This document shows, one piece after another, positions 53,701 through 59,700 of a stretch of DNA of 64,000 nt (position 1 is the first letter of the stretch; each line of letters opens with the position of its first letter). The stretch lies in NCBI RefSeq assembly GCF_051903065.1, contig NZ_CP178438.1. The stretch is one strand, 5' to 3'. Position numbers: made by a program. Source of the stretch: Escherichia coli. Lineage in GTDB: Bacteria > Pseudomonadota > Gammaproteobacteria > Enterobacterales > Enterobacteriaceae.

Positions 53701-56700
53701 ATCCGCACGGATGATGAGCGCACCCACCGGTACCATTACGACAGTCAGCACCGGCTGGTGCACTACACGCGGACACAATATGCAGAGCCGCTGGTCGAAA
53801 GCCGCTATCTTTACGACCCGCTGGGCCGCAGGGTGGCAAAACGGGTATGGCGACGTGAACGGGACCTGACGGGCTGGATGTCGCTGTCACGGAAACCGCA
53901 AGTGACCTGGTACGGCTGGGATGGCGACCGCCTGACCACGATACAGAACGACAGAACCCGCATCCAGACGATTTATCAGCCGGGGAGCTTCACACCACTC
54001 ATCAGAGTTGAAACTGCCACCGGTGAACTGGCCAGAACGCAGCGCCGCAGCCTGGCGGATGCCCTTCAGCAGTCCGGCGGTGAAGACGGTGGCAGTGTGG
54101 TGTTCCCGCCGGTGCTGGTGCAGATGCTCGACCGGCTGGAAAGTGAAATCCTGGCTGACCGGGTGAGTGAGGAAAGTCGCCGCTGGCTGGCATCGTGCGG
54201 CCTGACGGTGGAGCAGATGCAAAACCAGATGGACCCGGTGTACACGCCGGCGCGAAAAATCCACCTGTACCACTGCGACCATCGCGGCCTGCCGCTGGCG
54301 CTTATCAGTGCGGAAGGGGCTACAGAATGGTGCGCAGAATACGATGAATGGGGCAACCTGCTGAATGAAGAGAACCCGCAACAGCTGCAGCAGCTCATCC
54401 GCCTGCCGGGTCAGCAGTATGATGAGGAGTCCGGCCTGTATTACAATCGCCACCGCTATTATGACCCGCTGCAGGGGAGGTATATCACTCAGGATCCGAT
54501 TGGGCTGAAGGGGGGATGGAATTTTTATCAGTATCCGTTGAATCCGGTTCAGTATATAGATTCAATGGGACTGGCATCAAAATATGGACACTTAAATAAT
54601 GGCGGATATGGAGCGAGACCCAACAAACCGCCTACGCCCGATCCAAGTAAATTGCCAGACATAGCGAAACAATTAAGACTGCCATATCCTATTGACCAGG
54701 CCAGTAGTGCGCCTAATGTTTTCAAAACATTCTTCAGAGCATTAAGCCCTTACGACTACACACTGTATTGCAGGAAGTGGGTAAAACCAAATCTGACTTG
54801 TACGCCACAGGATGATCCCCAGTATCCAGGGATGGATACAAAGACAGCAAGTGATTACCTGCCACAGACAAATTGGCCAACAACTCAATTACCACCAGGA
54901 TATACTTGTGCAGAACCCTATTTATTCCCAGACATTAATAAACCCGATGGGCCAGCAACAGCAGGGATAGATGATTTGGGTGAAATTTTAGCTAAAATGA
55001 AACAGAGAACATCGAGAGGAATAAGAAAATGAAAAGAGTTTTGTTCTTTTTGCTGATGATATTTGTTAGTTTTGGTGTTATAGCTGATTGCGAAATACAA
55101 GCTAAAGATCATGATTGTTTTACTATTTTCGCTAAGGGTACTATTTTTTCCGCGTTTCCTGTCTTAAATAATAAAGCCATGTGGAAATGGTATCAGAATG
55201 AGGACATCGGTGAGTATTATTGGCAAACAGAACTGGGTACATGTAAAAATAATAAATTCACACCAAACGGGGCGAGACTCTTAATTCGCGTCGGGTCACT
55301 ACGCCTTAATGAAAATCATGCCATCAAAGGAACGTTGCAGGAGTTGATAAATACAGCAGAAAAAACGGCGTTTCTCGGCGATCGGTTTAGAAGTTATATA
55401 AGAGCGGGTATCTATCAAAAAAAGAGCAGTGATCCAGCTCAGTTGTTGGCAGTCCTTGATAATTCAATCATGGTTAAATATTTTAAAGATGAGAAGCCAA
55501 CTTATGCTCGAATGACAGCACATCTCCCGAACAAAGATGAGTCTTACGAATGTTTAACAAAAATACAGCATGAACTGCTTCGTAGTGAAGAAAAATAAAA
55601 CATCTTCCTGAGAGAATAAATTAACCATTCGGGAAAACATGTTCTTAATGGATATCCAGGTACACCAGAAGGTCGATTTGGAAAAATGGATTCCGATGGT
55701 AAGAATATCATATATTCTGAATGTAATGTTTTACCCACAACTTTTGAGATTCGATAGGTGTAGAACATGAGAAACTCACTAATATTACTTATTATGATAT
55801 TGTTTACAATATCACACTCAGTATTTGGAAAAGAAAATCCAGTGGAAATTTTAGTAAATAGTTGTGAAATGGCTTTGGAATTATCATATGTTTACATTAA
55901 ATATGTATACGGGAAAGAAAAAGCAGAATTTCAGAAACCATATAGTATTACAGATGACAATAATTGTTGGAAAATCGAGGGAAAACAACCGAAGACTTTA
56001 GGAGGAAATTTTACAATACTAATAGCGAAAAAAGATGGGCAAGTGTTGAATGTAATACACACGAAATAATCCACTGTACAGTCGATTCAAATATTTTACC
56101 AAGGTGTGTTTCGTAACAATTTTGTGTACAATATGACTCTACATATCGACGAAAAAACCACTTGATTTGACAGGAACACATTCAAAAAAATTTCTTTTTT
56201 TCATTTCAGGAGCGATTTTCATCTGTTACTTGAAGTATCTGTGAGATTAAGTGACTCCCCCTAACGTCGTACTAAATAGTAATTACTGGCCATACCGGGA
56301 GCAGTATTCGGCGCTCCCCACATGCAGCAGAATAACCGCATCAGCCAGGGAAAGATCATCAAAAGTTCACTTTTTGCACTAAATAATTCGCATTTTATGT
56401 TTAAAAATTGAGATATTCCTTATTACCTAAAGCTGTTTTTTATTGCTTATACATGATCAAATACTCCTTACATAATTAAGGAGAACAAAATGGAACTTAA
56501 AAAATTGATGGAACATATTTCTATTATCCCTGATTACAGACAAGCCTGGAAAGTGGAGCATAAATTATCGGATATTCTACTGTTGACTATTTGTGCCGTT
56601 ATTTCTGGTGCAGAAGGCTGGGAAGATATAGAGGATTTTGGGGGAACACATCTCGATTTTTTGAAGCAATATGGTGATTTTGAAAATGGTATTCCTGTCC

Positions 56701-59700
56701 ACGATACCATTGCCAGAGTTGTATCCTGTATCAGTCCTGCAAAATTTCACGAGTGCTTTATTAACTGGATGCGTGACTGCCATTCTTCAAATGATAAAGA
56801 CGTCATTGCAATTGATGGAAAAACACTCCGGCATTCTTATGACAAGAGTCGCCGCAGGGGAGCGATTCATGTCATTAGTGCGTTCTCAACAATGCACAGT
56901 CTGGTCATCGGACAGATCAAGACAGATGAGAAATCTAATGAGATCACAGCTATCCCTGAACTTCTTAACATGCTGGATATTAAAGGAAAAATTATCACAA
57001 CTGATGCGATTGGTTGCCAGAAAGATATCGCAGAGAAGATACAAAAACAGGGCGGTGATTATTTATTCGCTGTAAAAGGAAATCAGGGGCGGCTTAATAA
57101 AGCCTTTGAGGAAAAATTTCCACTGAAAGAATTAAATAATCCAGAGCATGACAGTTACGCAATGAGTGAAAGAGTCACGGCAGAGAAGAGATCCGTCTTC
57201 ATAATGTTTGCGATGTCCCTGATGAACTTATTGATTTCACGTTTGAATGGAAAGGGCTGAAGAAATTATGCGTGGCAGTCTCCTTTCGGTCCATAATAGC
57301 AGAACAAAAGAAAGAGCCAGAAATGACGGTCAGATATTATATCAGTTCTGCTGATTTAACCGCAGAGAAGTTCGCCACAGCAATCCGAAACCACTGGCAC
57401 GTGGAGAATAAGCTGCACTGGCGTCTGGACGTGGTAATGAATGAAGACGACTGCAAAATAAGAAGAGGAAATGCAGCAGAATTATTTTCAGGGATACGGC
57501 ACATTGCTATTAATATTTTGACGAATGATAAGGTATTCAAGGCAGGGTTAAGACGTAAGATGCGAAAAGCAGCCATGGACAGAAACTATCTGGCGTCAGT
57601 CCTTGCGGGGAGCGGGCTTTCGTAATCTTGCCCTGGAATGCTGACAGATAAGAATGATTGTGCCAGAATTGAAGCTATAAGCGGACTGGCAGAAAGAAAA
57701 GATAATCGTGTTATAACTGCTATAATTTATGAACTGCAAAAAAACATAATTTTTGATGAAGTTATTATTTTGGCAGGTATTTTAGGTGATATTAAACTAC
57801 ATCCTATTCAAAAAAATATATTAAATGAATTTAATGATGAGGATGTCATTGGCAATATAAAGTCAGCAATACAACAAATTATAAAATATAATTGATGGTG
57901 AAATATGCAGCGGTACTACCAATCGGTCAAGTATTCGCTGCTTTGATGATGATGTAAAATGATTGTTTTTGAACTGGATATAACAGCTTGGTAGGGAAGA
58001 AAGCATAACCCCACAAAATTCATTTACCATCGTCTACACTTACTCCTGTAAACCGTTCAGGAGCAGTAATGAATCTACAACGATTTGATGACAGCACCCT
58101 TATCCGCATTTTTGCTTTGCAGGAGTTACACCGTCTTAAAGAGCGAGGCTTAACGCGCGGGGCGCTCAACGATTATCACAGCCGCTATAAACTCGTCTTT
58201 CTGGCTCATTCCCAGCCGGAATACCGCAAACTTGGCCCGTTCGTGGCTGATATTCACCAGTGGCAAAATCTGGATGACTATTATAACCAGTACCGCCAAC
58301 GCGTAGTTGTTTTGCTTTCTCACCCCGCCAACCGACGTGACCACACCAACGTTTTGATGCACGTTCAGGGTTATTTTCGCCCGCATATTGATTCCACAGA
58401 ACGCCAGCAGCTGGCAGCGCTTATCGACAGTTATCGCCGTGGCGAGCAACCGCTTCTTGCGCCGCTGATGCGTATCAAACACTATATGGCGCTTTATCCT
58501 GACGCCTGGCTTTCAGGGCAGCGTTATTTCGAACTTTGGCCGCGTGTGATTAACTTGCGCCATTCAGGAGTTTTATGACTACTCATCTGGTCTGGTTTCG
58601 CCAGGATTTACGTCTGCACGATAATCTCGCGCTGGCTGCCGCCTGCCGCAATTCGTCTGCACGCGTGCTGGCGTTGTATATCGCTACACCACGCCAGTGG
58701 GCGGCGCATAATATGTCGCCGCGTCAGGCTGAACTTATCAATGCTCAACTGAACGGGCTACAAATCGCGCTGGCGGAAAAAGGTATTCCTTTATTGTTCC
58801 GTGAAGTGGATGACTTTGCCGCCAGCGTCGAAATAATTAAACAGGTGTGCGCGGAAAACAGCGTTACTCATCTTTTTTATAACTATCAGTATGAGGTGAA
58901 TGAGCGGGCGCGGGATGTGGAAGTTGAAAGAGCGCTGCGTAACGTGGTGTGTGAAGGATTTGATGACAGCGTGATCCTGCCGCCTGGCGCGGTGATGACC
59001 GGCAATCATGAGATGTACAAAGTCTTTACGCCTTTTCAAAATGCCTGGCTGAAACGGCTGCGGGAAGGGATGCCGGAGTGCGTCGCTGCACCAAAAGTTC
59101 GTAGTAGCGGATCGATAAAGCCCGCGCCATCCATTACGCTGAATTATCCTCGTCAGTCTTTCGATACTGCGCATTTCCCGGTGGAAGAAAAAGCGGCGAT
59201 TGCACAATTACGCCAGTTTTGCCAGAACGGTGCCGGAGAGTATGAGCAACAACGAGATTTTCCGGCAGTGGAAGGCACCAGCCGTTTGTCCGCCAGCCTG
59301 GCAACGGGCGGGTTATCACCTCGCCAGTGTTTGCATCGCCTGTTGGCGGAACAGCCGCAGGCGCTGGACGGTGGGGCCGGTAGTGTCTGGCTTAGTGAGC
59401 TGATCTGGCGCGAGTTCTACCGTCATCTGATGACGTATTACCCCTCGTTGTGTAAACATTGTCCGTTTATTGCCTGGACGGATCGTGTGCAGTGGCAGAG
59501 CAATCCCGCACATTTACAGGCCTGGCAGGAAGGCAAAACGGGATACCCGATTGTCGATGCTGCCATGCGTCAGCTTAACAGCACTGGCTGGATGCATAAC
59601 AGGCTACGGATGATTACAGCCAGTTTTCTGGTGAAAGATTTGTTGATCGACTGGCGCGAAGGCGAGCGATATTTCATGTCGCAGCTGATTGATGGTGATT

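Follow-up and report, generated by a model that had tools for sequence, protein, structure and literature searches.

A copy of the Rhs-associated H-repeat ISEc1 downstream of rhsC in Escherichia coli, with a transposase gene split by a one-base deletion

H-repeats at Rhs loci, defective ones included, have been described for decades, and the ISAs1 family, to which ISEc1 (H-rpt) belongs, is characterised by CAGGG ends (ISfinder). A described copy is H-rptB, which carries yhhI (378 aa) at RhsB of K-12. The rhsC copies of laboratory strains differ in their lesions and in copy number, BL21 having two tandem copies; in the BL21-derived strain BLK16 (ybfL/ybfD region, rhsC), which represents the locus treated here, the transposase genes show a similar decay, one copy having an internal stop and one being a truncated ybfD. 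Defective H-repeats at the rhsC locus are, as BLK16 exemplifies, routine. According to the E. coli W genome paper (PMC3032704), transposition of the H-repeat has not been observed.

The window, i.e. the whole 64,000-nt stretch of E. coli DNA that was analysed, contains a single copy of ISEc1, with no further copies or fragments. The orphan immunity genes that follow the Rhs gene of the rhsC locus stand on one side of it and ybgA on the other: an RHS core ORF (50833-55032) is followed by ybfC, a gene for an NTF2-fold immunity protein and then ISEc1, and annotated relatives have the order kdpA-kdpF-ybfA-RHS core-ybfC-NTF2 immunity-ISEc1-hypothetical-ybgA-phrB. The GC content is 0.30-0.43 over 54.8-58.2 kb versus 0.58-0.68 in the rhs core. 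The first-pass annotation, made from the sequence alone, had placed an Rhs-associated H-repeat in an AT-rich segment downstream of rhsC, and both the GC profile and the gene order agree with this. The same insertion site and right flank (a yibA-like remnant, then ybgA) are found in XH990 (transposase WP_040234609) and some 30 other genomes. The XH990 copy, which is 99.2% identical to that of the window, has an intact ORF with a run of four A residues (A4); to the left of its left terminal inverted repeat (IRL) it also carries 219 bp that the window has lost. The features of the locus are:

56345..56346, no strand: left junction; a 219-bp segment of XH990 and F9792 is missing, and the deletion ends at the first base of IRL
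56346..56363, + strand: IRL, CAGGGAAAGATCATCAAA, part of the best inverted-repeat pair of the region
56490..57260, + strand: ORF1, 256 aa; authentic N-terminus up to residue 227, then an out-of-frame tail (228-256)
57169..57171, + strand: putatively inactivating 1-bp deletion, A4 to A3, located by alignment with the intact XH990 copy
57170..57625, + strand: authentic C-terminal frame, K228-S378, 151 aa plus stop, containing E306 in an HWxVEN motif
57251..57260, + strand: incidental heptamer A_AAG_GGC, from a heptamer scan, directly before the ORF1 stop TGA
57272..57625, + strand: ORF2, 117 aa with a GTG start, the distal part only of the authentic C-terminal frame
57618..57635, + strand: right terminal inverted repeat (IRR), TTTCGTAATCTTGCCCTG, partner of IRL
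57638..57895, + strand: C-terminal remnant (85 aa) of a YibA-like HEAT-repeat "putative lyase", matching NF007244

The element is complete at 56346-57635 on the + strand, and its 1290 bp equal the canonical 1291 bp, the length of copies elsewhere, minus one base. With 56046-57935 as the query, the matches of thousands of independent ISEc1 copies begin and end at query positions 301 and 1590, and the breakpoints relative to XH990, O157:H7 and BL21 coincide with these bounds. DNA identity to thousands of annotated ISEc1 copies is 95-99%. A search for terminal inverted repeats, as the first-pass annotation had proposed, located the IRL/IRR pair, which is 79% complementary over 19 nt including one flanking base. 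These termini are imperfect repeats of the CAGGG type that other ISEc1 copies share exactly, and the left terminus is the same in the K-12 yhhI, XH990, O157 and BL21 copies. The repaired transposase matches NF033564 (NCBIfam) over the entire profile (1-314/314) with 412.7 bits, the curated cut-off being 70 bits; separately, ORF1 scores 271.8 bits (profile 1-213) and ORF2 103 bits (241-314). Among Pfam families ORF1 matches PF13808 and PF01609, and ORF2 PF01609, the two spanning residues 8-343 of the repaired protein. The earlier assignment to an H-repeat (ISAs1-family) transposase is thus upheld by the full-profile match and the identity to ISEc1 copies. Its sequence identifies 56346-57635 as a copy of the classical H-repeat of Rhs elements, ISEc1, with a single predicted 378-aa DDE transposase when intact. 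It shares about 97% DNA identity over the whole element with the ISEc1 of E. coli Rhs elements, of which H-rptB of K-12 is an example, and resembles it in length (1291 bp but for the missing base), in its CAGGG...CCCTG termini, in its 378-aa ORF once repaired and in its site downstream of an Rhs core gene amid orphan toxin and immunity fragments; it differs in having a 1-bp deletion at codon 227/228 and no flanking direct repeat.

Two adjacent ORFs of 256 and 117 aa in different frames had been noted previously, and their coordinates, lengths and frames all stand. The frame change between them is likewise real, being a 1-bp deletion, but its proposed position of 57260-57272 is wrong: this is the gap from the ORF1 stop codon to the first ORF2 start codon, and upstream of that start the second frame stays open as far as 57170. 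The alignment with an intact transposase that had been suggested for finding the indel shows one A missing at 57169-57171, the sole length difference from the same-locus XH990 copy. The intact sequence GTGAAAAGAG reads GTGAAAGAG in the window, GAA AAG AGT becoming GAA AGA GT. With the A put back, the protein has 378 aa and differs from that of XH990 at three residues; 227 of its residues come from ORF1 and 151 from the second frame. The length of about 373 aa given earlier was an arithmetic coincidence (256+117), the last 29 residues of ORF1 being out of frame. A single uninterrupted transposase ORF, as expected of a functional ISAs1 member, was not found at 56490-57625.

In an alignment of 12 sequences (66-96% identity) D109, D172 and E306 are invariant; this, together with general knowledge of DDE transposases, suggests that they form the catalytic triad. 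In the window they are split between the two frames. ORF1 carries the DDE_Tnp_1_assoc domain, D109 and D172, whereas E306 is encoded solely by the second frame and is missing from the ORF1 product, as is the conserved E-x-x-HGR-x-E-x-R-x-H segment; the stretch scrambled after the lesion covers the invariant H230, R232, E234, H238, D249 and W254. Since this segment and E306 are absent, the ORF1 product is not expected to be a working transposase, and catalytic activity of the 256-aa protein is predicted to be lost. Residue 174, two positions from D172, is I in the window and M in 11/11 aligned relatives. A putative ribosome-binding site (AAGGAG) at 56478-56483 is intact, as is a weak promoter-like site at 56448-56476, although sites of the latter kind are no commoner over the region than in shuffled sequences.

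The element is very probably a recently formed, lineage-specific ISEc1 pseudogene that arose by loss of one A from an A4 run, and the inactivity through a frame change that was proposed at the outset is supported as the main reading. The A was lost from codons 227-228 in the lineage of the window. Translation from the normal start would then give 227 authentic and 29 out-of-frame residues and end at the stop codon at 57258-57260; the product would keep the N-terminal domain with D109 and D172, lack E306 and be non-working, and the copy would be unable to move on its own. Because its ends are intact, other ISEc1 copies of the same genome could in principle act on it in trans.

The distribution of the lesion was examined with an exact 71-mer across it in 5,426 complete E. 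coli genomes. The A3 form occurs in 3/5,426 genomes, among 13,645 places in 4,251 genomes overall, the other copies (approximately 13,600) being A4. The carriers, ECNB21-M121 (meat, China), 23CRST027 and 23CRST031 (both human, Ecuador), are the closest relatives of the window. In all three PGAP labels the gene a "frameshifted" pseudogene, so the frameshifted allele is already known, having been annotated as such by NCBI. In 23CRST027 the G-run at 56640-56644 has also lost 1 bp, which breaks ORF1 at about codon 51; this second deletion and I174 show that decay of the pseudogene is continuing in the lineage. In all full-length relatives the transposase is a single ORF of 376-378 aa; they come from Escherichia, Salmonella, Citrobacter, Serratia, Dickeya, Raoultella and Entomohabitans (Enterobacterales).

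Truncated transposase derivatives inhibit or regulate transposition in trans in some other IS families, and the 256-aa ORF1 product could likewise be a retained protein that binds ISEc1 ends and acts as a trans inhibitor or regulator of other ISEc1 copies. Its PF13808 N-terminal domain is complete, its start codon and ribosome-binding site are intact, and six places in the genome of the closest relative match the element. There is, however, no sign of selection on an allele that is private to one lineage, 23CRST027 has already broken ORF1, and no such regulator of ISAs1 elements is described in the literature searched; we regard this role as very unlikely. An error of sequencing or assembly, with the gene really intact, is highly improbable. 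The lesion does lie in a homopolymer, the usual site of indel errors in long-read assemblies, but the run is just 3-4 bases long, and A3 is shared by three complete genomes that were sequenced independently, all with the private 219-bp flanking deletion of the window. A continuous ORF upon resequencing had been named as the result that would overturn the split gene; instead, the deletion is shared by genomes from China and Ecuador, three in all, that were assembled independently.

The first-pass annotation had left room for programmed frameshifting, and a -1 ribosomal shift, programmed or incidental, could join both frames so that full-length transposase is still made. The window copy resembles IS1/IS3-type elements, which use programmed -1 frameshifting, in having a second ORF that follows the first in the -1 frame, yet those families conserve both the slippery site and the arrangement from member to member, whereas here a private mutation separates the frames and the relatives are single ORFs. 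The shift needed is indeed -1, and an A_AAG_GGC heptamer, the only one in phase within the frame overlap, stands at 57251-57257 right before the ORF1 stop, where it could carry a small fraction of ribosomes into the second frame; in E. coli reporter assays this motif gave >0.1% frameshifting without a stimulator (Sharma et al. 2014, PMC4066793). It is out of phase in intact copies (AAA GGG C) and so cannot have evolved as a signal. Slippage at 57251 would moreover leave 27 residues scrambled (228-254), six invariant positions among them. At the lesion, T GAA AGA is not a slippery sequence, and no stimulatory structure was found downstream of the ORF1 stop, where the RNA folds no better than shuffled sequences (z = +0.96); no slippery heptamer that would restore the native protein and is followed by a stimulator was thus seen at this locus. 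Nor is the two-ORF arrangement conserved among the relatives: it is a recent mutation confined to one lineage, and the second frameshift of 23CRST027 indicates no selection to keep it. A literature search on ISEc1 frameshifting or transposition gave no supporting evidence: most hits were to other names that begin with the same letters, and PMC7482066, the one paper examined among them, does not contain the whole word "ISEc1". The caveat is therefore unsupported, and production of full-length transposase by this route has next to no probability.

As a lineage-specific pseudogene the copy matters very little by itself: the insertion sequence is common in E. coli, and this is an unremarkable dead copy of it; the useful outcome is the corrected lesion, protein length and element boundaries, together with the exclusion of programmed frameshifting.

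To the right, the 85-aa ORF begins 3 nt past IRR, its gene being cut off at the end of the IS. It matches positions 202-283 of the 285 of NF007244 (NCBIfam; E = 3.2e-24, below the full-length cut-off), is named a hypothetical protein by PGAP and has no Pfam match even at E <= 10. A single ancestral insertion splitting a yibA-like gene was considered and rejected, the K-12 RhsB fragment to the left of yhhI ending at about residue 117 and the window fragment starting at profile position 202/285.

No target-site duplication surrounds the element (left flank ...CATCAGC, right flank GAATGCTGAC...), as would follow from deletion of the original left flank; the ISEc1 copy of EC23-1020 (L008 2967-4257) has a perfect 10-bp flanking repeat, AGGATTTGAC. 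The contiguous left junction 56345/56346 is exclusive to the same three A3-carrying genomes, and the 219-bp deletion shows no microhomology at its junction; its breakpoint is unambiguous. Of the two flanks, the left one is present in 846 genomes and the right one only in about three dozen genomes, those with the IS at this site. The two flanks, joined (300 bp each), were contiguous in 0/5,426 E. coli genomes, and the original target could therefore not be reconstructed.

Across strains, four nested left-flank states (866, 697, 219 and 0 bp) were observed, all ending exactly at the left terminus, the extra 866 bp being those of BL21. Such terminus-anchored deletions hint at a reshaping by ISEc1 of the region downstream of rhsC, a modest point for Rhs locus evolution. 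It is conceivable, though doubtful, that the broken copy still matters, with the ORF1 product modulating other ISEc1 copies and the nested deletions being the footprint of ISEc1 activity that trims orphan Rhs toxin/immunity arrays. As markers of the lineage, the two private deletions (1 bp and 219 bp) could be of use.

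The H-repeat transposase gene downstream of rhsC is present in the window as two reading frames:

56490-57260, + strand: ORF1, 256 aa, ATG start
57272-57625, + strand: ORF2, 117 aa, GTG start, in a frame different from that of ORF1

In Pfam searches ORF1 held a complete PF13808 (DDE_Tnp_1_assoc) domain together with the beginning of PF01609, whose final part fell in the second frame. Against NF033564, the 314-position NCBIfam ISAs1 transposase model, ORF1 matched positions 1-213 and ORF2 positions 241-314. The two-ORF structure and the ISAs1/H-repeat assignment made in the first-pass annotation are therefore correct. 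The frame change is also real but had been placed near 57260-57272; upstream of ORF2 the second frame is open to 57170, directly after a TGA at 57167-57169, so this interval merely separates the ORF1 stop from the first possible ORF2 start.

E. coli XH990 carries an intact copy of the element at this locus (WP_040234609, 378 aa). Alignment of the two revealed a single length difference across 1341 bp, GTGAAAAGAG in XH990 and GTGAAAGAG in the window; an A4 run has thus lost one A, which leaves A3 at 57169-57171 (codons 227-228). With the A re-inserted, the translation is 378 aa long, differs from the XH990 protein at three residues (G52, N101 and I174) and matches NF033564 end to end (412.7 bits). 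ORF1 accordingly consists of 227 authentic residues followed by 29 out-of-frame ones, and the genuine remainder, K228-S378, is read in the -1 frame from 57170 onward. In a 12-sequence alignment the invariant D109 and D172 lie within the ORF1 part, and the invariant E306 (HWxVEN motif) is found only in the second frame, so that ORF1 lacks the third acidic residue; judging from this invariance and general knowledge of DDE transposases, the three presumably form the catalytic triad. The 1-bp deletion and the absence of E306 from ORF1 support the earlier proposal that the frame change leaves the element inactive.

That proposal carried the caveat that programmed frameshifting might join the frames, which is rejected here. 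Read in the ORF1 frame, the sequence at the lesion is T GAA AGA, which is not a slippery heptamer. The stretch open in both frames has a single in-phase heptamer, A_AAG_GGC at 57251-57257, which immediately precedes the ORF1 stop; Sharma et al. (2014; PMC4066793) list this motif among those that, unaided by stimulators, give >0.1% -1 frameshifting in E. coli. Against a role for this heptamer, intact copies do not have it in phase (AAA GGG C), the RNA past the ORF1 stop is no better folded than shuffles (z = +0.96), and a slip here would still replace residues 228-254, 27 positions which include the invariant H230, R232, E234, H238, D249 and W254. In Escherichia, Salmonella, Citrobacter, Serratia, Dickeya, Raoultella and Entomohabitans, each full-length relative has a single ORF of 376-378 aa.

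The rarity of the A3 allele was assessed with a 71-bp query centred on the A-run, which matched at 13,645 places, spread over 4,251 of the 5,426 complete E. coli genomes searched. Exact A3 matches occurred in only three, ECNB21-M121, 23CRST027 and 23CRST031, the nearest relatives of the window (each with 1 difference in 1341 bp); among the other matches listed at full query coverage, every one exceeded the query by one base, as expected for A4. A sequencing error is unlikely, since A3 recurs in three genomes that were assembled independently and come from different countries and sources; all three also share with the window a private 219-bp flanking deletion. The transposase gene of ECNB21-M121 and 23CRST027 is a "frameshifted" pseudogene in the PGAP annotation, and 23CRST027 has lost one more base, from the G-run at 56640-56644, a second frameshift that disrupts ORF1 around codon 51. 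This tract reads GGGGGAA (G52) in the window, GGGGAAA (E52, like intact copies) in ECNB21-M121 and GGGGAA in 23CRST027, variation which shows that the pseudogene is still decaying. I174 of the window is M in all 11 relatives aligned. Together, the rarity of A3, the single-ORF relatives, and the heptamer and alignment results point to an inactivating mutation that is recent and confined to one lineage, with further decay since, and to no decoding mechanism.

The element is ISEc1, known as the H-repeat of Rhs elements, and 5,342 of the 5,426 genomes contain ISEc1-like sequence (median 5 places per genome). Defective copies are commonplace at rhsC; the locus in the BL21-derived BLK16 has one ISEc1 copy with an internal stop, then a truncated ybfD. 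Objects of this kind are therefore already known, and this exact allele is already flagged in public annotation.

The locus is rhsC, the gene order in annotated relatives being kdpA-kdpF-ybfA-RHS core-ybfC-NTF2-fold immunity-ISEc1-hypothetical-ybgA-phrB. GC content drops from ~0.6 in the rhs core to 0.30-0.43 at 54.8-58.2 kb. The remaining window is ordinary E. coli chromosome, with a gln/met/leu tRNA cluster and sroC. Features around the element and in the rest of the window are:

14952-15114, - strand: sroC sRNA
23502-24205, - strand: tRNA cluster, seven genes (Gln x4, Met x2, Leu)
55029-55598, + strand: ybfC, 189 aa, no match in the Pfam search, downstream of the 1399-aa Rhs protein
55767-56069, + strand: NTF2-fold immunity protein, 100 aa (PF15631, E = 2e-20), downstream of the Rhs protein
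57638-57895, + strand: YibA-like remnant ORF, 85 aa (NF007244), starting 3 nt past the right inverted repeat (IRR)
60056-60098, + strand: ES036 (CssrF) sRNA, just downstream of phrB

The annotated length of the immunity ORF varies by strain, coordinates implying about 59-100 aa.

The best inverted-repeat pair of the region is 56345-56363 with 57618-57636. Homology to thousands of copies elsewhere in E. coli starts at 56346 and stops at 57635 (query positions 301 and 1590), and the breakpoints against XH990, O157:H7 and BL21 fall on the same bases. The element measures 1290 bp (1291 bp in other copies), and its termini, CAGGGAAAGATCATC... and ...TAATCTTGCCCTG, are identical in the yhhI copy of K-12 and other copies. 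Neither a flanking direct repeat of this element nor a second ISEc1 copy within the window was found.

Between the shared left flank, ending at 56345, and the first base of the left inverted repeat, four nested states were observed:

BL21: +866 bp (comparison locus L005, 3799-4664)
O157:H7: +697 bp (L004, 3799-4495), matching bases 11-702 of the BL21 segment
XH990 and F9792: +219 bp (L002, 6748-6966), the first 219 bp of the BL21 segment
window lineage: 0 bp (junction 56345/56346)

The shorter segments are prefixes of the BL21 segment, the O157:H7 match beginning about 10 bp in, and the 0-bp junction is private to the same three genomes that carry the frameshift. These states could reflect serial transposase-mediated adjacent deletions, a process whose products are anchored precisely at an IS terminus; recombination between tandem ISEc1 copies, which are present in BL21, is an alternative. 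No microhomology was found at the window junction. On the right side, O157:H7 lacks the yibA-like remnant, and its IRR directly adjoins the position that corresponds to 57931.

According to the E. coli W genome paper (PMC3032704), ISfinder lists Rhs tips that contain H-rpt, although no transposition has been observed. In EC23-1020 (L008, 2967-4257) an ISEc1 copy situated between two RHS core genes has a perfect 10-bp direct repeat, AGGATTTGAC, on its two sides; this is a normal target-site duplication and evidence that an element said not to have been seen transposing has truly done so. No such repeats were found at the rhsC-locus and K-12 RhsB copies checked.

The 85-aa ORF next to the IRR, a hypothetical protein in PGAP, matches through its C-terminal ~82 residues positions 202-283 of 285 of NF007244 (E = 3e-24), a YibA-like HEAT-repeat "putative lyase" model; the ORF is what is left of the 3' part of such a gene, truncated where the IS ends. 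At K-12 RhsB (L007, 2156-2506) the yhhI-bearing H-rpt abuts, on its left, the N-terminal 117 codons of another YibA-like HEAT-repeat gene, with an internal stop. Thus at two Rhs loci the H-rpt borders a YibA-like gene fragment, the fragments coming from different positions in that gene.
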